Of a stretch of DNA of 64,000 nucleotides, positions 4,808 through 53,722 are shown piece after piece. The stretch comes from Patescibacteria group bacterium. Its GTDB lineage: Bacteria; Patescibacteriota; Dojkabacteria; J137. The notes beneath the pieces are model-generated. The model did no database searches. It was not told where the DNA came from and worked only from the letters and a program-made list of their open reading frames with translations. Within the stretch, counting starts at the first letter, position 1, and each line of letters begins with the position of its first letter. Location: NCBI GenBank assembly GCA_016861265.1, contig BOLA01000001.1:671118-735117 (forward strand), read 5' to 3'. A program made the translations under genes and the position numbers.

Positions 4808-6319
4808 TTTATGGAGAGTTTGATCCTGGCTCAGGGTTAACGCTAGCGATGTGCCTAAGGTATGCAAGTCGAACGGTGAAATTTTGGTAGCAATACTGAA
4901 ATTTCGCAGTGGCAAACGGCTGAGTAACGCGTGGGAATCTCCCCCTAAGTCTGATATAGCTCACCGAAAGGTGGGGTAATCTCAGATAGTCTCGCGAGAG
5001 TAAAGATTTTTCGCTTAGGGATGAGCCCGCGTCCTATCAGGTTGTTGGTGAGGTAATGGCTCACCAAGCCTATGACGGGTAGCTGGTCTGAGAGGATGGC
5101 CAGCCAGACTGGGACTGCGATACGGCCCAGACTCCTACGGGAGGCAGCAACTAGGAATTATGCACAATGGCCGAAAGGCTGATGCTGCGACATCGCGTGG
5201 AGGATGAAGGTCTTAGGATCGTAAACTCCTTTTATCTACGAACAAGTTCTGAGTGTAGTAGATGAATAAGTGCCTGCCAACCACGTGCCAGAAGCATCGG
5301 TAATACGTGGGACACAAGCGTTACCCGGATTCACTGGGCGTAAAGAGATGCGTAGGCGTCTAGAAAAGTTCTGTGTTAAATCTCAAGGCTCACCCTTGAA
5401 ACTGCATAGAAAACTCTCTGGATTGAGTCATGTAGAGAAGAAGGGAATTCCTGGTGGAGCGGTTAAATGCGTTGATATCAGGAGGAACACCAATGGCGAA
5501 AGCACTTCTTTGGACATGTACTGACGCTAAGGCTCGAAAGTGTGGGGAGCAAAACGGATTAGATACCCGTGTAGTCCACACCGTAAACGATCCCTATTAG
5601 ATGTTCGAATTCTTGCTGAAATTTCTCTTCGGAGAAGGATAAGCATTATTTGAGTGTCGCAGCTAACGCGTTAAATAGGGCGCCTGTGAAGTACGACCGC
5701 AAGGTTAAAACACAAAGGAATTGACGGGGACCCGCACAAGCAGTGGAGTGCCTGGTTTAATTCGATGATCAGCGAAGAACCTCACCTGGGCTTGAACTGT
5801 AGCTGCAAACCCTATGAAAATAGGGCTCTTTCGAAGGTGCTATAGAGGTGATGCATGGCTGTTGTCAGCTCGTGTCGTGAGATGTCGGGTTAAGTCCCAC
5901 AACGAGCGCAACCCCTTTCAGATGTTACAATTACTTCTGATACTGCCCCGCCCAAACGGGGAGGAAGGAGGGGATGACATCCAGTCATCATGTCCCTTAT
6001 GTCCAGGGCTACACAGACACTACAATGGCGATATACAATGGGCTGCCAAACCGCGAGGTGGAGCTAATCCCATCAAAGATCGTCTCAGTTCAGATTGCAG
6101 GCTGCAACTCGCCTGTATGAAGTTGGAATTGCTAGTAATCGGACATCAGCATGGTCCGGTGAATACGTTCTCGGGTCTTGTACACACCGCCCGTCAGGGC
6201 ATGGGAGTTGCTCATACTCGAAGTCTACGTTTATCGTGGCCGAAAGTTATGGGTGGCGACTGGGCTTAAGTCGTAACAAGGTAGCCGTAGGGGAATCTGC
6301 GGCTGGATTACCTCCTTTC
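4808..6319 (+). rRNA. rrs: 16S ribosomal RNA
   Basis: The 5' end reads GAGTTTGATCCTGGCTCAG and the 3' end reads GTCGTAACAAGGTAGCCGTAGGGGAATCTGCGGCTGGATTACCTCCTTT. The length is about 1.51 kb and internal conserved blocks are present. Confidence 0.95.
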
Positions 6320-6468
6320 TAAGGAGTTAATCAACCAACTTTAACTAAGTTAAAGATTGTTTGATTCTTACCCATGATTTTGATACTCAAGGAAATTTAG
6401 AACCTTGTCACTTTTTTGTATTCAAAGATTTTTAAAAATTACCAGTAAGTTGCTGGTATGTTGAACAC

Positions 6469-6545
6469 AGGCCAATAGCTCAGCTGGTTAGAGCGCACCT
6501 CTGATAAGGGTGAGGTCCATGGTTCGAGTCCATGTTGGCCTACCA
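6469..6545 (+). tRNA. tRNA-Ile (GAT) in the 16S-23S spacer
   Basis: Cloverleaf with anticodon loop CTGATAA. The acceptor stem is AGGCCAA/TTGGCCT and a CCA end is encoded. Confidence 0.9.
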
Positions 6546-6625
6546 TTAATCAGAATACTAAATAGTAATTAGAAATTTATTTTGCTAAAATTTATAGCTT
6601 TAAATTGCTAATATTGTTTATTGTC

Positions 6626-6703
6626 GGGGCCTTAGCATAGCTGGTTTATTGCGCCTCATTTGCAATGAGGAGGTCAAGGGTTCGAATCCCTTAGGCTCCA
6701 CCA
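6626..6703 (+). tRNA. tRNA-Ala (TGC) in the 16S-23S spacer
   Basis: The sequence reads GGGGCCTTAGC...ATTTGCAAT... with a TTCGAATCC T-loop and an encoded CCA. Confidence 0.9.
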
Positions 6704-6802
6704 TTTTTGTTGTTTAATTAAAGTCAAAAGACGTAAATTAGCCAACAAAGTTTGGTTAAAACTTTGTTCATTAAAAACTGAATAGAAAGATATAATACAG
6801 AT

Positions 6803-9867
<3,065 letters not shown>

Positions 9868-10033
9868 TCTTTCAGCTTTCAGTTGTCAGTTAAGAGTGAT
9901 CTTTCTGATTACTTGAGACTGTAGACTGGAAACTCAATTATATCTTTTCTATTCAGTTTTTTTTGAACAAAGTTCAAAATTAACAATTTAAACTACGTCG
10001 TCATTAGACAAAAGTGCTTAATAAAAGCTTTTT

Positions 10034-10153
10034 TGTCCGGTGACGGTATCGCTTTGGACCCACCTGATCCCATTCCGAACTCAGAAGTGAAACATAGTTG
10101 AGCCGAAGGTACTTACGGGATACCCTGTCGGGAGAATAGGTAGTTGCCGGTAT
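10034..10153 (+). rRNA. rrf: 5S ribosomal RNA
   Basis: CCGAACTCAGAAGTGAAAC, GGGAGAATAGGTAGTTGCCGG and the terminal helix TGTCCGG/CCGGTAT are present. Confidence 0.9.
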
Positions 10154-20019: not shown

Positions 20020-21040
20020 ATGATTAACAATATACTTACACCTAAACGAATTGCCATTGATTTCGGCACTGCAAATTGTGTAATTATAATGGACGGTAAG
20101 GGTATTATTTTACAGGAACCGACTGTTGTAGCAATTTCACCTAAAGAAAAGAAAGTACTAGCGATTGGAGAGGATGCAAAGATAATGTTAGGGTAAAGTC
20201 CCTGAAGGGGTTGAGGCCAAAAGGCCACTTAAAAATGGTGGGATTTCTAATTATAGATTGGCCGAAGCCTTGTTAAGGCGTTTCTTTAAGAAAACAATGG
20301 GCAGGATTATGATAGTTAAACCCGAAGTAATTGTATCAGCCCCAGCTGGACTAACTTCAGTCGAGGAGCGAGCCCTAACACAAGCTCTAGCCTCCGTAGG
20401 AGCTGGAAAAATTTATATATTACCTGAACCTGTAGCAGCAGCAATTGGTGCAGGAATGCCAATTAATCTCCCAACAGGCAACTTAATTGTTAATCTAGGT
20501 GGTGGAACAGCGGAGGTAGCAGTGTTATCACTGAATGGAGTAGTTGCATACGAGTCTTATAGAGGAGCCGGTGATGCATTAAACGAGGCCATTACTAATT
20601 ATTTAAAAAGAAAGCATAATTTAATAATTGGTGAGAATACTGCTGAAGATATTAAAATACAATTTGCCTCTGCCTTAGAAGTCAAGAATCCAGTCCAAAT
20701 TGAAGTCAAGGGTAAGAATTCGAAGAATGGTCAACCCTCTGTTGTTTATATAAACTCAAATGAATTGGTTGAACCTACTAGAGAAGTACTTAACAATATT
20801 GCTAATACAGTAAAGAGAGTATTAACAAAGACACCACCAGAACTTATGGCCGATATAATAGACAACGGCATGATACTAAGCGGTGGAACATCTATGCTTA
20901 AAGGTATAGATGAGTTCTTAACAAAGGCAGTTGGAATACCTGCTAGTGTAGTTGATGAACCTTTAACTTGTGTTGCCAGAGGACTGGATATTGCACTGCA
21001 TAATTTAAATAGTTATAAGAGGAGTATTAAAATAACATAA
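20020..21040 (+). pseudogene. mreB: mreB paralog disrupted by a +1 frameshift near 20189-20197
   Basis: The N-terminal 58 aa (MINNILTPKRIAIDFGTANCVII...AIGEDAKIMLG) end at TAA 20194-20196. The actin-like continuation (GKVPEGVEAKRPLKNGGISNY...) reads in the +1 frame from 20192 and runs through ORF 20258-21040. Confidence 0.75.
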
Positions 21041-21041
21041 T

Positions 21042-22109
21042 ATGAAAGATCAGACTTTTAAAGAGATTCTACAGGAGTTAGGCAATATAGAAGTAACTCC
21101 ACTTTTAACGCCTATTCCTACGAATTTATCTGAAGAAATGGATAAATTTTTTAAAACACCCGGTTACAATCCTCAATTCAAGTACAGTAGACGCGACTTA
21201 TCTATGCAACGTAAACAAATAGATGAGTCTTTTGAGAAAATAGATTCTTCTTTACTAGAAGAAACTGAGAAGAAGTACCTTCTTGATGTTGCTTTCTTTA
21301 TTGAGTGCTTAATTGATCTGAACGAGTCACTAGGTAAGGAGAATTTATTCTGGGAGAATATACAGAGAGTCTATAATTGGGACTTAAATACTACTCCGGA
21401 CTTTAACAATTTAATATTAAGAAAAGAAGTTTCTGAGAATATCTACAATGCGATTACAATAAAGCAGAAACTAGAAGAAGCCCTAAATTCTCGTAACCTA
21501 GCGTGGAAAGTGGAGATTGTAGGGAAGGATAGGAGTGATGTGAGAGTGAGTATTGATAAACGGGTAGTTAATGTAGGAGAGCAAGCAGTATCAAATCCAA
21601 TCAAGCTCAAAAAAACAATTGTTCACGAGATTGATAGTCACATAATAAGATATGAAAATGCCCTAAAAACTGGCATTTCTATAATAGTTAGGGGTAATCT
21701 GCCTGGAAAAATATTAGCCGAAGAAGGTTTTGCAGTATTTAATGAGTATAAAAATGGGGTATTAACAACAGAAGACCTAGATAGGTATAAAATGAGATTC
21801 GAATTATGTAGAGAAGGCGGTAGTTTTAGGGAAATTTATACTAAATGTATTGATGTATATAAATTAAGCTCTACAAAGGCCTTTGAGACAACTCTACGAG
21901 TAAAACGAGGCTATGGGGATACTAATTATCCATATATACATAAAAAGGATTCATCTTATCTAAAAGGTTTAGAGCTAATTATTCAATCAGTTAAAGAAGT
22001 TGAGGACTATAAACATTTGTTCTGGGGTAGAGTACCTTCGGAAAATGAATATATTTTTAGTAAGCTGAGACTGGAAGACATAGATTTTACCTACCCCAGT
22101 TGGCTTTAA
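21042..22109 (+). CDS. Hypothetical HExxH protein, possibly DUF1704/QEGLA-motif family
   Basis: Contains HEIDSH (HExxH) and a downstream AEEGFAV motif resembling QEGLA. The family assignment is from memory only. Confidence 0.4.
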   Translation: MKDQTFKEILQELGNIEVTPLLTPIPTNLSEEMDKFFKTPGYNPQFKYSRRDLSMQRKQIDESFEKIDSSLLEETEKKYLLDVAFFIECLIDLNESLGKENLFWENIQRVYNWDLNTTPDFNNLILRKEVSENIYNAITIKQKLEEALNSRNLAWKVEIVGKDRSDVRVSIDKRVVNVGEQAVSNPIKLKKTIVHEIDSHIIRYENALKTGISIIVRGNLPGKILAEEGFAVFNEYKNGVLTTEDLDRYKMRFELCREGGSFREIYTKCIDVYKLSSTKAFETTLRVKRGYGDTNYPYIHKKDSSYLKGLELIIQSVKEVEDYKHLFWGRVPSENEYIFSKLRLEDIDFTYPSWL

Positions 22110-22915
22110 CGATATTCTAATAGAGAGTTAAAAGGCGTAATCTGGGTTTCTTCGATTATGTTCTTGGTAAGGTTGCCGTCTTGATCGTAGCCAAAAGTCA
22201 CTACTTTATTAAATTTATTGAAGAAAATTAAGGCTCTTTTATAGTAGGTATTATTGTAATCCATAGGATATGCTTTAAATCCATAGTATTCCTTGAATTC
22301 CATTAACCCAAGTCCCAATCTAATTCCATAAAGATTCTCATCTGTACCCCTTACAATCGTTTTTGCTTTCATCTCTAAAGCGAATTCATCTATACACATT
22401 TCCAGCAGTGCAGATAAGCTGGAATCCTTAATTTTTATATATTCATGGGCTCTATAGTCACACGATATTTCTTCCCGAAATCTATCAATACCAATAATTG
22501 CACCAGCAATTATTTTTCTCTCGGAATTCTTAATAAAAATTGATCCAAATTTATTAGTCTCTTTGGTCTTTTCAAACCATTTCATATCAATCTTAGGAAT
22601 ACCTAATTCCTTTTTCTCAATATTTTTATTGTATAATTCAAGCCATTCTGTGAATTCATTTTGATTTATGTTCTGGCTAAATTCAAAACTGTATAATAAT
22701 TCATTGTCAGCGTGCTTACGTGCTTTCAGTATCTTTTTCCTGGTCCCCTCAGACAGATATTCGAGAGGTTCATTAAATATGACTTCTTTCTTCCATTTTA
22801 TATTTCTTGGTCCGGGATAAGCTGTAGTTATATTATTTCTTACTGCGAAATCCCAGGGTAGATAGGCGTATGCCGGCTTATTATCGATGTAGAACAATTC
22901 TAATCTTTCGAACAT
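22106..22915 (-). CDS. FemAB-like/GNAT-fold acyltransferase-like protein. Last gene of the accessory operon.
   Basis: 269 aa. Fold-level resemblance to FemAB/BioF2-like acyl-CoA N-acyltransferases. Low-specificity call. Confidence 0.3.
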   Translation of the reverse strand: MFERLELFYIDNKPAYAYLPWDFAVRNNITTAYPGPRNIKWKKEVIFNEPLEYLSEGTRKKILKARKHADNELLYSFEFSQNINQNEFTEWLELYNKNIEKKELGIPKIDMKWFEKTKETNKFGSIFIKNSERKIIAGAIIGIDRFREEISCDYRAHEYIKIKDSSLSALLEMCIDEFALEMKAKTIVRGTDENLYGIRLGLGLMEFKEYYGFKAYPMDYNNTYYKRALIFFNKFNKVVTFGYDQDGNLTKNIIEETQITPFNSLLEYR

Positions 22916-22924
22916 AGATGTTTT

Positions 22925-23983
22925 TTAGCTAAGTAGTGAGGAGTAAAGCTTAAGATAATTTGCAGCCATAATGTCTCTTGTAAAATTTTCTGAAACCCAG
23001 GCTCTGCAGTTTTCAGGTTTTATAGAGTTTAATTCAGACAATTTAGCGGACATTTCTTCTTCGTTCATAGCTAAAAGACCAGAGAATCCATTTTTGATAG
23101 TTTCTCTAGTTAAACTATTATCTAGGGCAATCACAGGAGTTCCAGATGCCATTGCTTCTACGGGAACAAGTCCGAAAGGCTCTTTATTCCCGTCCAGTAT
23201 AGGGAATAAAACTGCCTTAGCCTTTGCGTAGTAATTTAATAATTCAAAGTGATCTATATTAGCGTGGTGTTCAACTAGCGGATTGTCTAAAAGAGGAGTA
23301 ACTTCTTCCTTGAAAAATTTTTCACTATCTTTATTCCCTTCCGAAGGTTTCCCAACAACGACTATCTTATATCCGTTATTTATTGCAACCCTCATTGCAA
23401 TATCAGCACCTTTTTTACGATCAAGCCTACCTACAAACAATAAAAAATCTTCTTTCTCTGCTTGAAAAGGAATAAGGTCGAGTTCAACCCCATTATATAT
23501 TGTTGTAACATTCTGAATTTTATCTAACAATGGAATTTTCTGTGTATTGGAGACTGTTACAAAATGGATATTTGGCGAATTAAATTTTTCAATCTGCTCA
23601 ATGAGCTCTTCGGTTATCGGGTTGTGAAGTGTTATTACAACTTTCTTATTCAATAGACTACCGATTGGAAGGGCGAATTCCACGTTATGCGTTTGAAATA
23701 TATCTGCCCAGTCTTTCTCCTGTTTAAAAGCATTAGCTAGATGATTAACAATAAACTTACCTCTTTTTGAACCAATCGCATTGTTGAATGGTGCATAGTT
23801 ATTTAACTCAATAGGGTAATAATACTTTAGCTCACCTGAAATTATAGAGTTTTTACATGCGTAGACCTTAAGCTCAGGATTTAATTTATATAGCGACTCG
23901 TTTAAATTGTAGAAAACTCTTTCCGGACCGCTTCTGCCATGGGGAATGTTAAACAAAATTGTGGCAATATGGCAAATATTCAT
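22925..23983 (-). CDS. Glycosyltransferase family 4 (GT-B)
   Basis: C-terminal E-x7-E signature EPFGLVPVEAMASGTPVIA. Confidence 0.8.
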   Translation of the reverse strand: MNICHIATILFNIPHGRSGPERVFYNLNESLYKLNPELKVYACKNSIISGELKYYYPIELNNYAPFNNAIGSKRGKFIVNHLANAFKQEKDWADIFQTHNVEFALPIGSLLNKKVVITLHNPITEELIEQIEKFNSPNIHFVTVSNTQKIPLLDKIQNVTTIYNGVELDLIPFQAEKEDFLLFVGRLDRKKGADIAMRVAINNGYKIVVVGKPSEGNKDSEKFFKEEVTPLLDNPLVEHHANIDHFELLNYYAKAKAVLFPILDGNKEPFGLVPVEAMASGTPVIALDNSLTRETIKNGFSGLLAMNEEEMSAKLSELNSIKPENCRAWVSENFTRDIMAANYLKLYSSLLS

Positions 23984-23985
23984 AT

Positions 23986-24924
23986 TTAAGGATTTCTAAT
24001 ATTCCTAAGGATCTCAAATTCAGTCGCTAGGTATTCAAATAAATTATATTTTTTAATGGACTCTATTACAGTATCTCTTATTTTTACTTTCTCCTGTGTA
24101 TCTACAGATGGATTCTGTAGCAATTTAAAGTAATAGTAAATATAGCCATAAAAGAGGTTAGTTTTACTTAATTTATTTACATTTAACTTCTTCTCTTCGA
24201 GTAATTTCTTTTTTGAATATAAATAGGCTCTATAACTTTCCGCTCTTGCCTTGTCCTTTCCTTGTAAGGAATTACTATTCACAAGACTTTCGTGACCCCT
24301 CCTAAAGTAACCCAATGGTTCAGAAATATAATCAAATCTGAAGTTGTTCATGCTAATTCGCAAAATTAAATCATGGTCTTCTGATAGCCTCATTGTTTCA
24401 TCAAAATATCCGACTTCATCAAAAATGGATTTCTTCATTAGTATAGACGTTATTGGTGGGTATCCGCCATTTTCGAATAATTCGGGAAAAAAATAATCCT
24501 TACGAAGTGTTTTTCCATAGATATTGTTTACATTTGAAATATCCCCTTCAAATCTATAGATTGGGTGGTAGGTTATATCTGTATCGTTTCTTTCGATTTG
24601 TCTTATCTGTAGTTCAAGCTTATTCTCCATCCATAAATCGTCGGAGTCTATAAATGCAATTAATTCCCCTTTCGCCTGCTTGATTGCTGCATTTCTTACT
24701 TTCCCAACATAACCACCACTATTTTCTGCTAGAAATACTGGTTTTATTCTAGAATCGTTTGCTGCATATTTTATTATTATGTCCTTAGATGAATCCGTAC
24801 TTCCATCATCAATAATAATATGCTCATAATCTGTGAAAGTTTGTTTCTGAACACTTTCTATTGTTTCTTGGATTACATTCTCTCTATTAAAAACAGGAGT
24901 TATGATTGATATTCTAGGTTGCAT
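23986..24924 (-). CDS. Glycosyltransferase family 2 (GT-A)
   Basis: N-terminal SIITPVFN...IIDDGSTD and a DSDD motif. Confidence 0.8.
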   Translation of the reverse strand: MQPRISIITPVFNRENVIQETIESVQKQTFTDYEHIIIDDGSTDSSKDIIIKYAANDSRIKPVFLAENSGGYVGKVRNAAIKQAKGELIAFIDSDDLWMENKLELQIRQIERNDTDITYHPIYRFEGDISNVNNIYGKTLRKDYFFPELFENGGYPPITSILMKKSIFDEVGYFDETMRLSEDHDLILRISMNNFRFDYISEPLGYFRRGHESLVNSNSLQGKDKARAESYRAYLYSKKKLLEEKKLNVNKLSKTNLFYGYIYYYFKLLQNPSVDTQEKVKIRDTVIESIKKYNLFEYLATEFEILRNIRNP

Positions 24925-24925
24925 T

Positions 24926-25708
24926 TTATTTATTTAACTTATTAAAGGGGCAGACCTCGATTAGAGGGTGTAAATCAATCTTATGATTATAATTATATAT
25001 TTGCGAATGTAAATCTTCAAGCTTTGTATCTTCAGTGATAACCATAGGCTTTACTAAAGGTCGATTCACAGACAAAAAATAATCTTCGAATTTAAATCCG
25101 TTACCGATAACCTTATCGGAAAATTCTACCCAGTAGGCTGGAATATTATAAGCATCGGAGGCAATAATACCATGTAAGGAACTTGAGAATATGATTTCGC
25201 AAGAATTAATCTCATCAATGAATTTAAATTTATCTTGTGTTATGTCTATTACCAATACATCTGGATTATTCTCTAAATTTTTGACAAATGCATTCTCTTT
25301 ATCTACATAGTGAGGAATTACTCCAATCTTATATTTCTTTTCGCTAATAACGGGTTTATATATTAAAGGGAAAAGAAGAGCAGGGTCACCATATATTTCA
25401 GGACATTCAATCCCTTGGTTTAACAACGATTTCCTTGTAAGTGGCCCCCTAACTGCTAATATTTTTGGTGAGGTAGAAATAGTGCTCTTTTCTGTAATAA
25501 AGCCGCTTCCCCAAACGACCGAATTATTCTTGGCTCTATCTAATATACTTCCAACAACATAATAAACTGGCCCTAAATATGACTCTAAATCATTTATGTG
25601 AGTTGGAATCTCTCCCGAAAAAAACTCTATTAATGTTGGATTTATTGCATCTCCCCAATTATTAACTACCTCTGGATTTTTGGATCTAAACCAATAAGCT
25701 ACTAACAT
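24926..25708 (-). CDS. Polysaccharide pyruvyl transferase-like protein
   Basis: N-terminal NNWGDAINPTL resembles the N(F/W)GD motif of the PS_pyruv_trans family. Confidence 0.45.
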   Translation of the reverse strand: MLVAYWFRSKNPEVVNNWGDAINPTLIEFFSGEIPTHINDLESYLGPVYYVVGSILDRAKNNSVVWGSGFITEKSTISTSPKILAVRGPLTRKSLLNQGIECPEIYGDPALLFPLIYKPVISEKKYKIGVIPHYVDKENAFVKNLENNPDVLVIDITQDKFKFIDEINSCEIIFSSSLHGIIASDAYNIPAYWVEFSDKVIGNGFKFEDYFLSVNRPLVKPMVITEDTKLEDLHSQIYNYNHKIDLHPLIEVCPFNKLNK

Positions 25709-25709
25709 A

Positions 25710-26636
25710 TTAATTTATAAGATAATTAGATAAATTTGTAAGGTAGGCCTCTAGTAAATCTAGACTCTCTTCACTAAAGACATCTAGCCCTGGCTTAGTA
25801 TTTGCCTCAACCAAAAGATATTTCTGAGAATGCCTATCGTACATAAAATCAAGTGAGAATATCTTCTTTTCGAATGCCTCGAGTCTTTGTATTATTTTTT
25901 TACATAATTCCAATAGATCTGGAATATTTTCTAATTTTATAAATTCAATGCTTGCACCTCTATGGAAGTTAGTATAGAGTGACCCTTCAGCAGCAATTCT
26001 TGATAATGCATATTGTGGACTTTCTCCGAGGAATACAACCCTGAAATCCTTTATTTCATTGTCTTGTTTTGCGTCAATAAAATCTTGTACAATTGAGTTG
26101 TGCTGTAAATAGATCTCTTTATCGTTTGTTATTTGGACCTGTTTTCCACCCGAACCTCTAATATTTTTAATGACTAGCGTCTTTCCATCCTCGTTTTTAA
26201 TGGTCTCTCCTGCTAATGCTAAGCGAGAGTAGGGAAGAAAGTCTTTAAATATCACAGCCTGATTTAATTTATTATCTATAAGGTTATCGAAATATGTATT
26301 ATTCACTAGTGGAATGATTTTTTCTATTTCAAGCTTCTTTTCGTGAATTTCGATTAAAAGATCACCTGTTATTTTATTAAAATTTCCACACTTATCATAA
26401 ATTACGTTAGGTTTTATTTCATTTTCTACCTTTTGCCACGAATTATTTACAAACTGCCACCCCTTAGTAAACTTGCCTTCCTTAAACCAATTAATGTTGC
26501 TTCTATAGAGTCTAATATCCAATTTCTTACATACTTTTCCCCAAGTTGAATAACCTAAATTCTGACTAGGAGTAAAATCTGGCTTCTCTAGGTTCCAATC
26601 CTCTTCGTTGTTTAGTATTAGTATCGATTTATTCAT
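25710..26636 (-). CDS. ATP-grasp fold enzyme, sugar-transfer-associated/YheCD-like (paralog 1)
   Basis: Contains GSGGKQVQI, FRVVFLG...SRIA and LLVEANTKPG. It is clearly paralogous to the adjacent gene. Confidence 0.6.
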   Translation of the reverse strand: MNKSILILNNEEDWNLEKPDFTPSQNLGYSTWGKVCKKLDIRLYRSNINWFKEGKFTKGWQFVNNSWQKVENEIKPNVIYDKCGNFNKITGDLLIEIHEKKLEIEKIIPLVNNTYFDNLIDNKLNQAVIFKDFLPYSRLALAGETIKNEDGKTLVIKNIRGSGGKQVQITNDKEIYLQHNSIVQDFIDAKQDNEIKDFRVVFLGESPQYALSRIAAEGSLYTNFHRGASIEFIKLENIPDLLELCKKIIQRLEAFEKKIFSLDFMYDRHSQKYLLVEANTKPGLDVFSEESLDLLEAYLTNLSNYLIN

Positions 26637-27556
26637 TAGTTTAGTAAATAATCAGTTAATTTTGAGTAGAAAAGTTCCATTATTTCAATATTATCTACAA
26701 ATACTCCAACTCCAGGTGTGCTATTAAATTCCATTAGGTATGGCTTATTTGATTGAGTCTCTACAATAAAATCTAGTGAATATATTAGTTTAGGAAATAC
26801 TGAAAGAGGTTGGGATATTTCTTTAGCCTTCTCAACAAGAAACGGTATAGTATTCATATCTACAATCTCAGAATGGGCTCCTTTGTTAGTATTTGTAAAG
26901 CTGGAGTCCTTTTCTGCTATTCTACTTGCAGCGTATACCAATTCACTTCCTATAAAAACTAATCTGTAGTCCCTCAGTTCGTCGTTTGCTCTTGCATCAA
27001 TAAATTCTTGAATAATACTATTTTCACTTATTATAATATTTCTATCTTCACTTATCTGAACCTGATTCCCACCCGATCCATAAGGCAACTTTATTACCAG
27101 TTTACTATTATTGTTTACCGAAGTATTAGCGGGTACAAATTTACTATTAGGTAAGTATTTATTAAATAATACTAATTGGTTAATCTTGTTGTCTAAAAAT
27201 AAAGACGCTTCTGGAGGGTTAATAAATTTGTATTTTGAAGCCACTAGTATTTTTTTATTATACAAGTCAGACTCAAGGTGACCGTTTGTTTTATCGTAAA
27301 TTCTTGCCTTGTCATAGACTACATCAGGATTAAAGTTATTACTGATCTTTTCCCAAGCTTTTGTATTGGGATTATATTCCCAATACTTTGCAAAACTTTC
27401 ACCGTTAAACCAGTTTATTTCGCTCCTTACAAGCTTTATATCTCTTGATGCGCATAAATCTCCCCAATAAGAGTAAGATCTTCTGAATCTTTCCTTATGT
27501 TCAGGCTGATCTAAATGCCAATCATCTCCAGTGTAGAGTATCAAAATGGATTTCAT
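26636..27556 (-). CDS. ATP-grasp fold enzyme (paralog 2)
   Basis: Contains GSGGNQVQI, YRLVFIG...SRIA and LMEFNSTPG. It overlaps its neighbours by 1-4 nt. Confidence 0.6.
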   Translation of the reverse strand: MKSILILYTGDDWHLDQPEHKERFRRSYSYWGDLCASRDIKLVRSEINWFNGESFAKYWEYNPNTKAWEKISNNFNPDVVYDKARIYDKTNGHLESDLYNKKILVASKYKFINPPEASLFLDNKINQLVLFNKYLPNSKFVPANTSVNNNSKLVIKLPYGSGGNQVQISEDRNIIISENSIIQEFIDARANDELRDYRLVFIGSELVYAASRIAEKDSSFTNTNKGAHSEIVDMNTIPFLVEKAKEISQPLSVFPKLIYSLDFIVETQSNKPYLMEFNSTPGVGVFVDNIEIMELFYSKLTDYLLN

Positions 27557-29034
27557 ACTTGTATTTTTGAAGGGTCAATTAGAAACTTTCCAAGGGTGTT
27601 ATTGCCCAATAGTATTTTATAGCTTAGATGTTTTCTGTCAAATATTGTAAAGTTCGTAATAATTTCTTGTCCCTCTATAATTATCTTTATATTTACATAT
27701 AGTCTTAAGCTTGTCCCATGGCTTGATCTTATGTATTTTATATTTGTAAGATAATCAAATTTCAATTTAAGTTTAGTGAATATATCTTGAGCTACGACCT
27801 GGGCTTCATCTTCAGTTGTAAGCTTGCTAGAGGCTTCACTATAAAGTATCTTAAATTCTTCTATTATATCCCCGAATCCTAACGATACTGCGAGGGATTC
27901 ATCAATGGATGATAGGTCTGCACCAGTATCCACCTTTGCTTTTATATTGAACGAAGTTTGCAGATCAAGGCTATATACCTCTATGTTTGTTGTTAATCCA
28001 ATAACTTGTTTTCCTGATAGGCTCTCAATTTCCTCTTCTATTTCTCCACCGAACAGGTCTTTTGCAAGTCTTACGGCTCTTTCAGTAGTTTTCACTTTAA
28101 TTCCGGAAGCCTTTTTTAATCTCCATCTCAGACCATCATCATTTGCAAGTTGAATTGAAAGTCCTGGTCTTGCATTCATTTCAACAATTACGGGTCCTTT
28201 TTCTTCATCTATTAAGAAATCAACTGCCCCGAACCCAAGTCCGGTTACTTTGCTTGCTTCACAGGCGTACCTCAATATTTTGTCCCAATAAGGAATTTTT
28301 ATACCAGATAAAGGTAAATTGGTATTTGGGACATAATCGATTGCGGTGGATTTCCCAATTATTGAGGATGTGGTTTTTCCAACTGCCATGTCAATTCCTG
28401 CTGCTATTGCTCCTAAATCAAGGTTTGCTTTCCCATCAGATTCTTTTGTCGGTAGCCTAATATAACTCATTACAGGAATAGAGTTGAATATTAGGACTCT
28501 AATGTCTGGTGCACCTTTATAACTGTAATACTTAAAACCTTTATGTGGTCTAACTCTTTCTTCAATCAAGGCCCTGTCGGGTTCATTAAATAGAGAATAT
28601 CTACCATCTAGAATATCCTGTATTAAGGACTTTAAGTCGTCTTCAGTGTATCTTCTATTGCCAGAGGCAATCCATTTACCCTCCTTATTTCTATTATATA
28701 CAATGGTTACACCACCGCCTCTCACTCCTTTTACAGGCTTTATTACAAATGACTTGGGTAGAGTAGAGAAATCAAATTCATTTAGCTGGTTTCGGTTCTT
28801 AATTACCTTTACAAGTGTAGGAACAGGGATTCCAGCCCTGGCTAGAATTCTTTTGGATATAGTTTTATCATCCGCAATCTTAATGGCACCTCTTTTATTA
28901 TATGGACGAATGTAATTTAGATATCTCTCATTCCTTCCCAAAACTAATTTTCTATTTTCAATTATCTTGCTTAGGCTGATCATTTGTAGTCTTATTATCC
29001 CCAAATAAAATGCTTCGGAATCTCCAGTACTCAT
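27553..29034 (-). CDS. RimK-like ATP-grasp ligase fused to a C-terminal retropepsin-like (DTGA) protease domain
   Basis: N-terminal ATP-grasp (VIKPVKGVRGGGV; VDFLIDEEKGPVIVEMNARPGLS). C-terminal AKVDTGADLSSID aspartic-protease signature of the RimK-associated protease family. An alternative start at 28983 is possible. Confidence 0.65.
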   Translation of the reverse strand: MSTGDSEAFYLGIIRLQMISLSKIIENRKLVLGRNERYLNYIRPYNKRGAIKIADDKTISKRILARAGIPVPTLVKVIKNRNQLNEFDFSTLPKSFVIKPVKGVRGGGVTIVYNRNKEGKWIASGNRRYTEDDLKSLIQDILDGRYSLFNEPDRALIEERVRPHKGFKYYSYKGAPDIRVLIFNSIPVMSYIRLPTKESDGKANLDLGAIAAGIDMAVGKTTSSIIGKSTAIDYVPNTNLPLSGIKIPYWDKILRYACEASKVTGLGFGAVDFLIDEEKGPVIVEMNARPGLSIQLANDDGLRWRLKKASGIKVKTTERAVRLAKDLFGGEIEEEIESLSGKQVIGLTTNIEVYSLDLQTSFNIKAKVDTGADLSSIDESLAVSLGFGDIIEEFKILYSEASSKLTTEDEAQVVAQDIFTKLKLKFDYLTNIKYIRSSHGTSLRLYVNIKIIIEGQEIITNFTIFDRKHLSYKILLGNNTLGKFLIDPSKIQV

Positions 29035-29689
29035 TTAACCTTAGTCCGGTAAATCTGCCAAGGTAAACATTGACAATTATTAGTATTGGAATGATCAATA
29101 AATTAGTTTCTACGAAGCTCTGTAGCCTTGTAATTGATATGAAAATGTAACAAAACAATGCAGTGATGAAAGTATCTATTGCAGTATTAAATCCGTAGCT
29201 TGTTCCCTTTCTAGCAAAGGCTGAGACAAAGGGTTCGACTAATATAGCTAAGATTATTAATGTAAATTTATTTAAGAACACTGGTCCATTAAATCCTACA
29301 ATTCCTGCTACAACAATACAGGCAAAAAGCGAGATTACTACGCCAAGTGTAACTAATGTTAGTTTAGGTATGTAGTTCATCCTAAGATATTTTAGGACTC
29401 TATATACTAACCAGCTAGTGATTAGTGTTATGGTGTAGAGTAATACTCCATATTTCACTGCCTTCCATATATCTTGTTCTCCAGCGTTATTGCCAAATTC
29501 ATATAAAAGGAAGGTGATGATTACCGGGGTAAAGATTCCGAGGCTTTTTATTCCAATAACATATCTGGCGATTCCAATTATCGTTGTAACCACAGGAAGA
29601 AGTATCAATATTACAAATACCTCTTTATATAGTGCAACTTCTGTTGCTGGGATTCCTCTTTGTATTAATAAATTCCAAATTATATCCAT
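28958..29689 (-). CDS. Standalone seven-transmembrane protein, the type associated with RimK-like ATP-grasp systems
   Basis: 243 aa with seven predicted hydrophobic helices. First gene of the operon, overlapping the next gene. Confidence 0.55.
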   Translation of the reverse strand: MDIIWNLLIQRGIPATEVALYKEVFVILILLPVVTTIIGIARYVIGIKSLGIFTPVIITFLLYEFGNNAGEQDIWKAVKYGVLLYTITLITSWLVYRVLKYLRMNYIPKLTLVTLGVVISLFACIVVAGIVGFNGPVFLNKFTLIILAILVEPFVSAFARKGTSYGFNTAIDTFITALFCYIFISITRLQSFVETNLLIIPILIIVNVYLGRFTGLRLNEYWRFRSILFGDNKTTNDQPKQDN

Positions 29690-29706
29690 ATGTTTAGTAT
29701 TAAAAA

Positions 29707-29742
29707 AGCAGGTTGTTTACACTTAATATAAACTAACCTGCT
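29707..29742 (-). terminator. Rho-independent terminator after rplL (minus strand)
   Basis: Imperfect 13-bp inverted repeat AGCAGGTTGTTTA/TAAACTAACCTGCT followed by a T-run on the minus strand. Confidence 0.55.
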
Positions 29743-29770
29743 CGTATTTACAAAATAATTATCAGAGTAA

Positions 29771-44904: not shown

Positions 44905-44921
44905 TTTATTAAGGTAAATTT

Positions 44922-45554
44922 ATGGTAACAATAGATCAGATTAAAGAGTTAAGAACTATAACTGGAGCCGGAGTAGGGGCAGTTAGAGAAGCTCTTGAGA
45001 CAACAAATGGTGATGTAGCAGAAGCAATTAAATTCCTTAGAGCTAAGGGATTGGCTAAGGCCGGTAAGAGAAAAGGAAAAGTTGCAGAACATGGTATCTT
45101 GGGGACTTATATTCACTCAAACAAAAAATTTGTAGTAGTAGTAGAGGTTGCTTGTGAGACTGACTTTGCTGCTAAGAGTGAAGATATGAATAAATTTGCT
45201 AACGATTTGGCAGTTCATATCGCAGCTGTTAATCCTAAATATATTTCTGTTAGCTCAATTGACAAAGAAACTTTGGCTAATGAACTTTCAGCAGCTGAAT
45301 CTGGCCTGGATAACAAACCAGATGAAATAAGAAAAACGATAATTAATGGAAAACTGGAAAAATTCTACCAGGAGGTAGTATTATTAAAGCAGACATTATT
45401 TACTGATGAATCTAAAACAGTAGAAGATTATCAAAACGAAATGGTAGCTAAGATAGGCGAAAAAATAGAAATTACACAATTTTATAAATTTCAAGTTGGC
45501 GAACCAGTAGTTTCAAATACTGCTGCTCCCGAAGAAGAAGTAACAGAAGAATAA
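44922..45554 (+). CDS. tsf: Elongation factor Ts
   Basis: Contains IKELRTITGAGVGAVREALE... Short form. Confidence 0.85.
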   Translation: MVTIDQIKELRTITGAGVGAVREALETTNGDVAEAIKFLRAKGLAKAGKRKGKVAEHGILGTYIHSNKKFVVVVEVACETDFAAKSEDMNKFANDLAVHIAAVNPKYISVSSIDKETLANELSAAESGLDNKPDEIRKTIINGKLEKFYQEVVLLKQTLFTDESKTVEDYQNEMVAKIGEKIEITQFYKFQVGEPVVSNTAAPEEEVTEE

Positions 45555-52580: not shown

Positions 52581-53669
52581 TTAGTCCTCAACTTCATTTT
52601 CTGATAAAGTTTCCCCTGATCGAATAACTTTATTTGTAGTTTCTAATATCTCGCTTAGGTCACCTTCAAAAACAACTTGGTTTATATTAAACCATGATTT
52701 TCCTATTCGGTGGTCGGTTATTCTTCCTTGAGGAAAATTATATGTTCTTATCTTAGAAGACCTTTTCCCCCCCATTATAGACTCATTTCTCAGGGTATTA
52801 AGTTCGCTAGTTACTTTTTCTTGTTCAATTTCATTGAGTCTTGATGCAAGTACCATCATAGCCATTTCTTTGTTTGTGTGTTGAGACTTGCTGGTCTGGC
52901 AGGTGACTGTAATCTTTGTCGGAATATGTGTTATTCTCACGGCCGAATCTGTAGTATTAACTGACTGGCCACCGGGTCCACTAGACCGATATACATCTAT
53001 TCTTAGATCTGATTGTTTTATCTCAATAGAATCTATGTCTATTTTCGGCATCACTACAACAGATGCTGTTGAAGTATGCACCCTTCCAAGTGTTTCTGTT
53101 TTTGGAACTCTTTGAACTCTATGTACACCTGATTCGAATCTGAATAATCCAAAAGTATTAGGCTTATCAACTAGAAAAGTTGCCCCACTAATTCCCCCTT
53201 CGGTATTGTAGTCAATAGAAAAGATTTCAATTTTTATATTATTACTTGCACAGTATTTCTGATACATACCCATTAAGTCCTCAGCAAACAAAGCTGCTTC
53301 GACCCCTCCGACACCCGGCCTTATTTCAAATATTGATCTCTTATCGTCATCTTTTAGGGGCTCAATTAATAGGGATTCCAATTTGGTATAGATGTCATCT
53401 AAGTTTAAATTAATAGATTCGATCTCTGCTTCTGCTAAGTCTTGGAGTGATTCGTCCGAAAGCATTGAATGCGTATCTTCTAAAGAACTTAGGTAGTAAG
53501 TCGCTTGCTGAAAGAGTTTTTTTATTTCTGCATTTTGATTATATCTCTTTAGGGTTTCAATATATTCTGGAGAAGAAAAATTATGATTAGAATTACTATC
53601 AAATTCATTTATAGAATTCTGGATAGAGTCAATATCGATTTTTTTTAGAAGGTTTTGTATTTTATGCAT
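52581..53669 (-). CDS. prfA: Peptide chain release factor 1
   Basis: PKT tripeptide (RF1-type PxT) and GGQ motif (SSGPGGQSVNTTDSAVRITHIPT). Confidence 0.85.
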   Translation of the reverse strand: MHKIQNLLKKIDIDSIQNSINEFDSNSNHNFSSPEYIETLKRYNQNAEIKKLFQQATYYLSSLEDTHSMLSDESLQDLAEAEIESINLNLDDIYTKLESLLIEPLKDDDKRSIFEIRPGVGGVEAALFAEDLMGMYQKYCASNNIKIEIFSIDYNTEGGISGATFLVDKPNTFGLFRFESGVHRVQRVPKTETLGRVHTSTASVVVMPKIDIDSIEIKQSDLRIDVYRSSGPGGQSVNTTDSAVRITHIPTKITVTCQTSKSQHTNKEMAMMVLASRLNEIEQEKVTSELNTLRNESIMGGKRSSKIRTYNFPQGRITDHRIGKSWFNINQVVFEGDLSEILETTNKVIRSGETLSENEVED

Positions 53670-53722
53670 AAAAAATCCCTTATAAAGAATATAAGGGATT
53701 AAAAATTATAAGTAAATGATGC

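Follow-up and report, generated by a model that had tools for sequence, protein, structure and literature searches.

What is produced by a compact row of genes located between ribosomal protein genes and mreB in a bacterium of the Candidate Phyla Radiation (CPR), and do these genes form a single pathway? The locus in question belongs to a representative of Dojkabacteria (assembly GCA_016861265.1, contig BOLA01000001.1) and lies within the window, i.e., the whole stretch of 64,000 nucleotides that was analyzed (positions 671,118 to 735,117 of the forward strand). Eight genes of the minus strand, designated here as g1–g8 in the order of transcription, were interpreted in a first-pass annotation, made from the sequence of the window, as one operon for a surface glycan decorated with amino acids. 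Comparison with related genomes suggests another organization, namely, a conserved two-gene core of the Rlo/Rim type, encoding a putative acidic-peptide ligase with a built-in trimming protease, and a lineage-specific cassette. This interpretation, to which we assign slightly more than an even chance, is based on the observed domain identities, catalytic residues and gene order, as well as on the pattern of their conservation.

By its domain content, g2 is a predicted ATP-grasp ligase nearest to the RloC type and a retropepsin of the RloA/RimB type joined in one polypeptide. The ligase domain, approximately residues 20–310, matches PF14397 (ATPgrasp_ST) with 213 bits against a cut-off of 31.4; the nearest family is TIGR02291, ‘alpha-L-glutamate ligase-like’, which we take to be the family including RloC, with 264 bits over positions 9–291 of 317 and a curated cut-off of 314.2. 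With the RimK family TIGR00768, which has a cut-off of 143.4, g2, g3 and g4 score 58.7, 30 and 36.6 bits, respectively. The residues K82, D255, E268 and N270 of g2, as well as the motif D352-T-G-A of the protease, are invariant in 18 homologs, and the first four, namely, the ATP-binding lysine and the Asp/Glu-x-Asn ligands of magnesium, are also invariant in both g3 and g4, as well as in three accessory ATP-grasps of other loci. The AlphaFold model of g2 (pLDDT 81.7) is represented by two domains, with a disordered linker at residues 313–323 and a RimK-like ligase, for which RimK, cyanophycin synthetase and ArgX/LysX were the top Foldseek matches.

The C-terminal domain, approximately residues 325–470 with the motif DTGA, matches the retropepsin-like family PF05618 (35.5 bits against a cut-off of 27) and also the models of RimB and RloA (RloA3). 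The profile of this domain matches the PDB entries 9g58, 9g59 and 2pma, while direct phmmer searches of PDB with g2 or its C-terminal domain gave marginal matches to RimK or none. Positions K29, D31, R106 and R129 of the domain alignment are invariant in nine CPR sequences and correspond to K26, D28, R94 and R117 of the 9g58 chain; with an offset of 20, which we infer, the latter would be equivalent to K46, D48, R114 and R137 of RloA, the catalytic aspartate and the residues contacting polyglutamate (PMC12239564). In membrane-segment prediction, no hydrophobic segment and no signal peptide were found in g2, so that the retropepsin, which is joined to the C-terminus of the ligase, is predicted to reside in the cytoplasm and not to be secreted. 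The start of g2 is likely at 28983 and not at the first ATG, since gene callers chose this start in five relatives, as well as in L090, another, independent assembly of this organism; homologs called in relatives are 472–482 aa in length. The linker of g2 contains the sequence GGEIEEEIE (residues ~312–320), of which G312, G313, I315, E316 and E320 are invariant in 18 homologs, and this Glu-rich segment may be a self-cleavage site or a pseudo-substrate of a glutamate-directed protease.

Gene g1, judging by its profile matches, encodes a standalone seven-transmembrane (7TM) protein of the RloB C-terminal-domain type. It matches PF14402 (7TM_transglut) with 63 bits against a cut-off of 25 in the Pfam scan, and in the NCBIfam scan only positions 312–506 of 508 of the RloB model NF052267 were matched, i.e., g1 corresponds to the 7TM part of RloB and lacks the transglutaminase part. 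About seven hydrophobic segments were predicted in g1, the sole membrane protein among the proteins of the locus. Accordingly, the theme of RimK, 7TM protein and protease, recognized in the first-pass annotation, is supported by the Rlo/RimB-type family matches of g1 and g2, and the domain calls made there for g1–g7 were likewise borne out by profile hidden Markov model searches against Pfam and NCBIfam.

The RloABC system of Pseudomonas aeruginosa consists of the secreted retropepsin RloA, RloB, an inactive-transglutaminase/7TM protein, and RloC, a cytoplasmic ATP-grasp (Lormand et al. 2025, PMC12239564). RloA cuts runs of at least eight glutamates in vitro, and a triple protease mutant has hypo-osmotic, shape and biofilm defects that are suppressed when RloB or RloC is lost (PMC12239564). 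The Rlo operon, named in 2025, affects osmotic survival, shape, biofilm formation and antibiotic tolerance in Pseudomonas; it was reported to be essentially proteobacterial, with 96% of RloB matches in proteobacteria (PMC12239564). Hypo-osmotic death, shape defects and sensitivity to ampicillin were described for rlo mutants of Pseudomonas, while in Vibrio the orthologs are under the control of VxrAB, a cell-wall stress regulator. The same three modules are present in adjacent, co-directional genes of the CPR core: the RloB-type 7TM domain, an ATP-grasp nearest to the RloC/TIGR02291 type and the RloA/RimB retropepsin PF05618, the latter with the catalytic Asp and the polyglutamate-contacting Lys/Arg residues of RloA conserved. 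Unlike RloB of ~508 aa, g1 has no periplasmic inactive transglutaminase domain; unlike RloA, a separate secreted protein with a signal peptide, the protease of g2 is fused to the ligase C-terminus and contains a helical insert of ~45 residues; and, unlike the proteobacterial system, the core is found in CPR hosts and is followed by a variable cassette of ligases, carboxypeptidase and sugar enzymes.

A combination of ATP-grasp ligase and cytoplasmic retropepsin is also typical for RimK–RimB and RimBK. RimB shortens the polyglutamate chains that RimK synthesizes (Little et al. 2025, PMC11957791), RimK produces free poly-alpha-glutamate and is stimulated by RimB, and a RimB–RimK hybrid polypeptide with the N-terminal protease is proteolytically active (PMC11957791). 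In contrast to this single-polypeptide form, the protease of g2 is C-terminal, and g2 is not an ortholog of RimK; RimK has no membrane partner, and its substrate S6 is not implicated here. Such ATP-grasp contexts were reportedly first described by Iyer et al. in 2009, and the exact composite with glycosyltransferases corresponds to no described system, as the first-pass annotation had noted.

The search with the fusion g2 gave 2702 protein matches at E ≤ 0.001, of which the best 120 are all about 470–510 aa in length. The source names of the homologs, together with common synteny, place the genome of the window in Candidatus Dojkabacteria (WS6). At least 554 loci were found in the scan of GTDB species representatives; the best 80 were examined, and all of them cover the retropepsin domain and originate from metagenome-assembled genomes (MAGs) of Dojkabacteria, Moranbacteria and the Parcubacteria type. 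A homolog of g1 is located directly before g2 in 83 of 85 loci, the other two being contig ends. What follows this core is variable: in Dojkabacteria, the variable slot lies between the core and mreB, and in five of them (L013, L019, L020, L022 and L023) the core stands alone, with no genes between g2 and mreB. One to three accessory ATP-grasps of three subfamilies are present in 64 of 76 loci, at a median distance of 12 nt after g2. A sugar enzyme after the core was found in 15 of these 76 CPR loci and was absent from 61. The slot contents include Mur-ligase-like genes (9 loci), co-directional MATCAP-like genes (7), genes of YdjC-type deacetylase (6), GT4 (6) and GT2 (3), and some cassettes contain small GNATs, also as GNAT–ATP-grasp fusions, an ATP-grasp of the L-amino-acid-ligase type, or a tandem ATP-grasp with a match to the tubulin-tyrosine ligase (TTL) family.

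Variability of the cassette is also observed among close relatives. The genome L086, with g2 84% identical, contains g1–g7 in the same order, together with a convergent MATCAP gene, but not g8; conservation of the gene order, named as a check in the first-pass annotation, therefore concerns seven genes in this relative, and the eight-gene unit is not kept beyond it. In L088 (g2 73% identical), the core is followed by a paralog of g8 (29% identity to g8), a GT2 gene, an ortholog of g8 (47%) and a convergent MATCAP gene, while accessory ATP-grasps (g3, g4), the pyruvyl-transferase (g5) and GT4 (g7) are absent. Thus, two g8-like genes are located in L088 where the ATP-grasps stand in the window, and ATP-grasps and Fem-like enzymes, which have unrelated folds, substitute for each other between close relatives. 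L092 contains three ATP-grasps and a convergent MATCAP gene, with no sugar gene.

Associations within the cassettes were analyzed by Fisher tests in which species were taken as independent, so the values are rough. ATP-grasps of subfamily B, which includes g3, g4 and 32 ATP-grasp genes of Moranbacteria-type loci, are associated with MATCAP (p = 0.009), YdjC (p = 0.02) and sugar enzymes of any kind (p = 0.015), and MATCAP itself is associated with sugar enzymes (p = 0.003); in the same loci, ATP-grasps of subfamily C never co-occur with MATCAP or sugar enzymes. Many of the loci L026–L085 are titled ‘uncultured Bdellovibrionales’, ‘Gammaproteobacteria’, ‘Micavibrio’ or ‘Saccharibacteria’ in the records, but show either the yebC-ruvC/PBP1A/dnaN-dnaA synteny of Moranbacteria or the rplJL synteny of Dojkabacteria, and the taxonomic labels in these MAG records do not look reliable.

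The accessory ATP-grasps of the window, RimK/GshB/YheCD-like by their profile matches, are paralogous (234 bits between g3 and g4), as had been proposed. The RimK-type ATP-grasp domain PF08443 was matched by g3 with 38 bits and by g4 with 46 bits, the latter also matching PF14398 (43 bits) and PF02955 (28 bits). Housekeeping ATP-grasps, namely, Ddl, CPSase, PurD/K, GshB and cyanophycin synthetase, were considered and rejected for g2, g3 and g4: the NCBIfam scores are far under the curated cut-offs, while the catalytic Lys, Asp and E-x-N are kept, in agreement with the non-housekeeping role suggested for them earlier. The TupA-like family PF14305 gave 20 bits with g2 against a cut-off of 25 and no match with g3 and g4.

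The gene g8 is predicted to encode a Fem-like aminoacyl-transferase from a very small family, represented by four sequences with matches below 1e-30 among 1.84 billion. The former assignment to a FemAB/GNAT-like group holds at the level of the structural match and not at the level of Pfam: the FemAB_like score is 20.5 bits with a cut-off of 27 (families PF04339 and PF02388 were considered), and no NCBIfam match was found. Structural matching revealed the tandem-GNAT fold common with aminoacyl-tRNA-dependent transferases, and the top matches include Sbb17, which aminoacylates an amino-sugar compound. The sequence similarity of g8 to Fem, MprF/L-PGS and Sbb17-type enzymes is marginal, and the coiled-coil arm of FemA is missing. 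In P0144 (795 aa) and P0155 (554 aa), a remote relative of g8 is preceded by an N-terminal ATP-grasp domain within the same protein, so that two kinds of peptide-bond-forming enzyme are linked in one polypeptide.

Beyond g8, on the plus strand, a gene that was not in the first-pass annotation encodes a MATCAP/DUF1704/QEGLA-type metallocarboxypeptidase; its stop codon overlaps that of g8 by 4 nt, and it begins 1 nt after an mreB-like gene. The protein matches PF08014 with 80 bits against a cut-off of 27, and TIGR02421 (‘QEGLA’) with 91.5 bits against a cut-off of 338.65, and so is no equivalog of the latter. Residues H195, E196, H200, E228, G229 and A231, forming the HExxxH and E-G-x-A motifs, are invariant in 14 homologs. 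The convergent position is the same in L086, L088 and L092, while in seven Moranbacteria-type loci (L066, L049, L030, L052, L054, L047 and L046) the MATCAP gene is co-directional within the cassette, after the ATP-grasp genes. Judging by the motifs and gene context, this protein is a probable accessory ‘eraser’. Like the eukaryotic cycle of TTL and MATCAP, the cassettes pair an ATP-grasp ligase with an HExxxH metallocarboxypeptidase of the MATCAP fold, by which the added C-terminal residue could be taken off again; unlike it, no tubulin is involved, and MATCAP of Dojkabacteria follows mreB, not ligases. In L066 (11420–15389), the tandem ATP-grasp adjoining MATCAP matches the TTL family with 52 bits, which by family assignment is a prokaryotic pairing of both enzyme families of the tubulin tyrosination cycle.

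MATCAP may belong with mreB no less than with the ligases. In L107, a MAG with a similar mreB/PEGA neighborhood (5460–9152), mreB, a WecG-type glycosyltransferase gene and MATCAP are followed by a Y1 transposase and giant proteins; the link of MATCAP to the system is uncertain because no ATP-grasp operon adjoins mreB and MATCAP there. The distant homologs P0325 and P0298 have no adjacent ATP-grasp and thus give no sign of a general pairing of MATCAP with ligases outside the cassettes. In Photobacterium damselae, the ‘QEGLA motif protein’ RS17025 was ~27-fold upregulated at low salinity (PMC10308900); the gene with the adjacent tag, RS17020, annotated as GshB, was also induced, and RimK was induced 52-fold in the same experiment (PMC10308900). 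This low-salinity induction echoes the osmotic Rlo phenotype.

The sugar enzymes g5–g7 are predicted to be soluble, as no transmembrane segment was found in them. The gene g5 encodes a protein with predicted pyruvyl-transferase activity, matching PF04230 (PS_pyruv_trans) with 51.2 bits against a cut-off of 25.3 over only positions 78–277 of 280, and has no NCBIfam match; it is kept in L086, and its homologs in other metagenome contigs have no neighboring ATP-grasp or 7TM genes. The GT2 domain PF00535 was found in g6 with 122 bits and the GT4 domain PF00534 in g7 with 86 bits, both above the gathering cut-off; the best NCBIfam matches were TuaG for g6, far under its cut-off, and, weakly, MshA, GlcNAc-phosphatidylglycerol synthase and BshA for g7, so that no specific equivalog was reached for either. 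Genes for flippase, polymerase or priming transferase are absent from the operon. A GT4 gene is located after a subfamily-B ATP-grasp in L026, L032, L043 and L052. An anti-phage or conflict system, raised by a weak GT4-conflict match, was rejected, as none of the nine proteins matched any PADLOC model.

The coordinates of these genes and of further features of the window are listed in the table.

Features of the locus and of the remaining window (positions are those of the window)
Feature	Position	Strand	Length	Assignment
g1	28958-29689	minus	243 aa	7TM membrane protein, first core gene
g2	27553-28983 (first ATG at 29034)	minus	476 aa from 28983	ATP-grasp/retropepsin fusion, second core gene
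g3	26636-27556	minus	306 aa	accessory RimK/GshB-like ATP-grasp, subfamily B
g4	25710-26636	minus	308 aa	accessory RimK/GshB-like ATP-grasp, subfamily B
g5	24926-25708	minus	260 aa	polysaccharide pyruvyl-transferase-like, short form
g6	23986-24924	minus	312 aa	GT2, predicted soluble
g7	22925-23983	minus	352 aa	GT4 (GT-B), predicted soluble
g8	22106-22915	minus	269 aa	Fem-like tandem-GNAT, predicted aminoacyl-transferase
MATCAP	21042-22109	plus		MATCAP/DUF1704/QEGLA-type metallocarboxypeptidase, convergent with g8
Hairpin	29700-29743	minus		terminator-like hairpin and U-run between rplL and g1
g2 linker segment	28024-28050	minus		GGEIEEEIE
mreB-like gene	20020-21040	plus		frameshifted mreB-like gene
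rRNA operon	4808-10152	plus		16S - tRNA - tRNA - 23S - 5S
EF-Ts	44913-45551	plus		ends APEEEVTEE
Class-1 release factor	52584-53705	minus		ends ENEVED

The eight tightly packed minus-strand genes of the first-pass annotation are all present, and the spacing of 0–4 nt given there is valid at five of the seven junctions, but not at g1/g2, which overlap by 26 nt, or at g7/g8, separated by 9 nt. The other overlaps are 4 nt (g2/g3) and 1 nt (g3/g4), and the gaps are 1 nt (g4/g5), 1 nt (g5/g6) and 2 nt (g6/g7). The 26-nt overlap of g1 and g2 recurs in L001, L003, L086/L087 and L088, and the gene calls of L090 are identical to those of the window. The GC content of the locus (0.32–0.36) is similar to that of the remaining window, and the locus is syntenic in relatives, so a recent horizontal island is unsupported. 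Sites found in a scan for consensus promoters were no commoner than in shuffled sequence. The hairpin between rplL and g1 has a minimum free energy of -20.8 kcal/mol (z -3.85), and an equivalent hairpin with a U-run was found in five relatives (L001, L003, L005, L088 and L092), with a different sequence in L005 and L092. Because this hairpin is conserved after rplL while its sequence varies, transcription of the Rlo-like locus is probably not a mere continuation of that of rplKAJL, and the hairpin probably separates the locus from the rplKAJL operon. Loci of Dojkabacteria lie between rplKAJL and mreB/ndk/M23 peptidase/rho, while Moranbacteria-type loci lie between yebC-ruvC and a class A penicillin-binding protein (PBP); in about 44 loci, a class A PBP gene of the same strand lies 3′ of the locus. 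Co-transcription with rplKAJL as a pointer to a ribosomal target is weakened by the conserved terminator hairpin and by the distance of the Moranbacteria loci from ribosomal genes.

If the interpretation as a core with a variable cassette is correct, the cytoplasmic RloC-type ligase would be held at the membrane through contact with the 7TM protein g1 and would extend a carboxylate acceptor or a growing chain by alpha-linked acidic residues, most likely glutamate. The retropepsin, presumably as a dimer, would cut Glu-rich chains, setting the chain length or recycling the product, which is proposed by analogy with RimB acting on the RimK product and with RloA in vitro. Further residues might be added by g3, g4 and g8, and the C-terminal residue might be removed by the MATCAP-like protein, while g5, g6 and g7 could either act on an acceptor that contains sugar, by building or altering it, or produce a separate glycan. 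Possible acceptors are a protein, a glycan, a lipid or a peptidoglycan precursor. Gene order makes a glycan acceptor possible, as independent lineages have sugar-enzyme genes flanked by those for ATP-grasps and MATCAP. An acceptor that contains sugar or belongs to the envelope is favored by the repeated presence of sugar enzymes in the cassettes, the obligatory 7TM protein, the envelope-type Rlo phenotypes and the wall genes nearby in two lineages; a dedicated glycan pathway is disfavored since most loci contain no sugar genes and the functions of export and polymerization are absent.

Several points weigh against this core-and-cassette interpretation. The TIGR02291 score of g2 is under the equivalog cut-off (264 against 314), and the helical insert of ~45 residues in its retropepsin has no counterpart in RloA. 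To our knowledge, there is no RloC-type enzyme with a known substrate and no biochemistry on any CPR member. MATCAP in Dojkabacteria always stands after mreB, in L107 without an adjacent ATP-grasp operon. In addition, the packing is as tight as in a dedicated pathway and g1–g7 are ordered in the relative with 84% identity, which leaves some chance of one integrated pathway within this sub-lineage. A further-reaching version, which we regard as rather unlikely, is that the core is an ancient CPR-wide machine writing and trimming short acidic peptides on a membrane-proximal envelope precursor (a lipid-linked sugar or a peptidoglycan precursor), with the hypervariable cassette (ATP-grasp, Fem-like, Mur-ligase-like, deacetylase, glycosyltransferase and MATCAP-type enzymes) diversifying the peptide-glycan by lineage. 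If true, it would give the first biochemical handle on Rlo function in any bacterium and on the surface diversity of episymbionts.

Other explanations assign the genes differently. According to the one closest to the first-pass annotation, all eight genes form one pathway, in which a surface glycan is built by GT2, GT4 and pyruvylation and decorated with amino acids by the ATP-grasps and the Fem-like enzyme, the 7TM protein and retropepsin being involved in export or processing. The tight packing and the order of g1–g7 in L086 are consistent with it, as are the genes for GT4, YdjC deacetylase, GT2 and a GT8-like enzyme that independent Moranbacteria-type loci carry between their ATP-grasp and MATCAP genes, the association of sugar enzymes with subfamily-B ATP-grasps and MATCAP (p = 0.015 and p = 0.003), the structural match of g8 to Sbb17 with its amino-sugar substrate, and the name of PF14397, reflecting sugar-transfer contexts. 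Nevertheless, we consider it unlikely: a sugar enzyme is absent from 61 of 76 loci and five loci contain the core alone; L088 has no g3, g4, g5 and g7, and L092 has no sugar gene; flippase, polymerase and priming transferase are absent and the sugar enzymes are soluble; and homologs of g5 elsewhere occur in unrelated contexts. The teichuronopeptide analogy is not supported: it is similar in concept, as an ATP-grasp amidoligase stands beside glycosyltransferases, but differs in that the TupA-family cut-off is reached by none of the three ATP-grasps and genes for polysaccharide export or polymerization are not present. The part in attachment to a host, suggested in the first-pass annotation, gained no support from the analysis. 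Distinctly unlikely is editing of protein C-terminal tails, in which ATP-grasps would extend an acidic C-terminus, as RimK does on S6 and TTL on tubulin, retropepsin and MATCAP would remove the residues, and the sugar genes would be unrelated. The closest structures, RimK and LysX/ArgX, are indeed ligases acting on the C-termini of proteins or carriers, MATCAP-family proteins are tyrosine carboxypeptidases by Pfam/NCBI naming, the TTL-family match in L066 (52 bits) stands by MATCAP, and the locus directly follows rplJ-rplL in all Dojkabacteria examined; however, the conserved terminator hairpin lies between rplL and g1, Moranbacteria-type loci follow yebC-ruvC and not ribosomal genes, the obligatory 7TM partner points to the membrane, and the open reading frames (ORFs) of the window include none for a protein ending in a poly-acidic tail. 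Only EF-Ts and the class-1 release factor have acidic C-termini among these ORFs; both are mildly acidic-ended, and the search for a nearby substrate protein with a poly-acidic run or tail gave no lead.

Diversification of peptidoglycan precursors or stem peptides, with the core and cassettes adding and trimming amino acids on a membrane wall precursor, seems improbable, although the classes of cassette enzymes fit it: wall peptides are diversified by ATP-grasps, such as the enterococcal D-Asp ligase, by Fem transferases and by the Mur-ligase-like MurT. Mur-ligase-like genes are present in 9 loci, a class A PBP follows in about 44, mreB and M23 peptidase genes are located nearby in Dojkabacteria, and the Pseudomonas rlo phenotypes and Vibrio VxrAB control agree with a wall target. 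At the same time, this synteny, being lineage-specific and concerning housekeeping genes, may reflect inheritance and not function; mreB is on the opposite strand, no enzyme of the retropepsin or MATCAP type is known to act on peptidoglycan, and wall peptides offer no known counterpart to the specificity of RloA for polyglutamate. Synthesis of free small peptides or poly-amino acids as osmolyte or storage, e.g., poly-glutamate or compounds of the N-acetylglutaminylglutamine type, with the protease setting the length and the 7TM protein as exporter or sensor, is highly improbable: it leaves the glycosyltransferases and the Fem-like enzyme unexplained, and transport by the 7TM domain has no support, even if RimK makes free poly-alpha-glutamate with RimB stimulation, GNAT–ATP-grasp fusions and L-amino-acid-ligase-type ATP-grasps are found in some cassettes, the Rlo phenotype is osmotic, and the Photobacterium genes for QEGLA and the adjacent-tag GshB-annotated protein are strongly induced at low salinity.

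Independently of the acceptor, a stripped-down Rlo-like form, with a 7TM-only partner and with ligase and protease in one polypeptide, was found in at least 80 species-level CPR genomes, repeatedly joined to peptide-bond-forming enzymes, a MATCAP-type carboxypeptidase and sugar enzymes, and located near cell-wall genes in two lineages. This comparative pattern narrows the candidate substrates of Rlo, the small soluble fused enzymes are suitable for biochemistry, and the locus points to a variable site of envelope modification in bacteria with an almost unknown surface chemistry.

The mreB-like gene of the window contains a one-base frameshift near 20193, with a stop at ~20195 and continuation in a different frame; in L090, this gene is uninterrupted (339 aa), and the frameshift is a strain-specific mutation or an assembly error. 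In the Dojkabacteria L005, L011, L013, L017, L018, L020, L024, L092 and L107, a protein of ~480–520 aa is encoded next to mreB on the opposite strand, beyond the variable slot, and a PEGA-domain match was found in it wherever it was scanned. The ribosomal RNA operon of the window, located 12 kb from the locus, is complete and explains the rise of GC content to 0.42–0.44.

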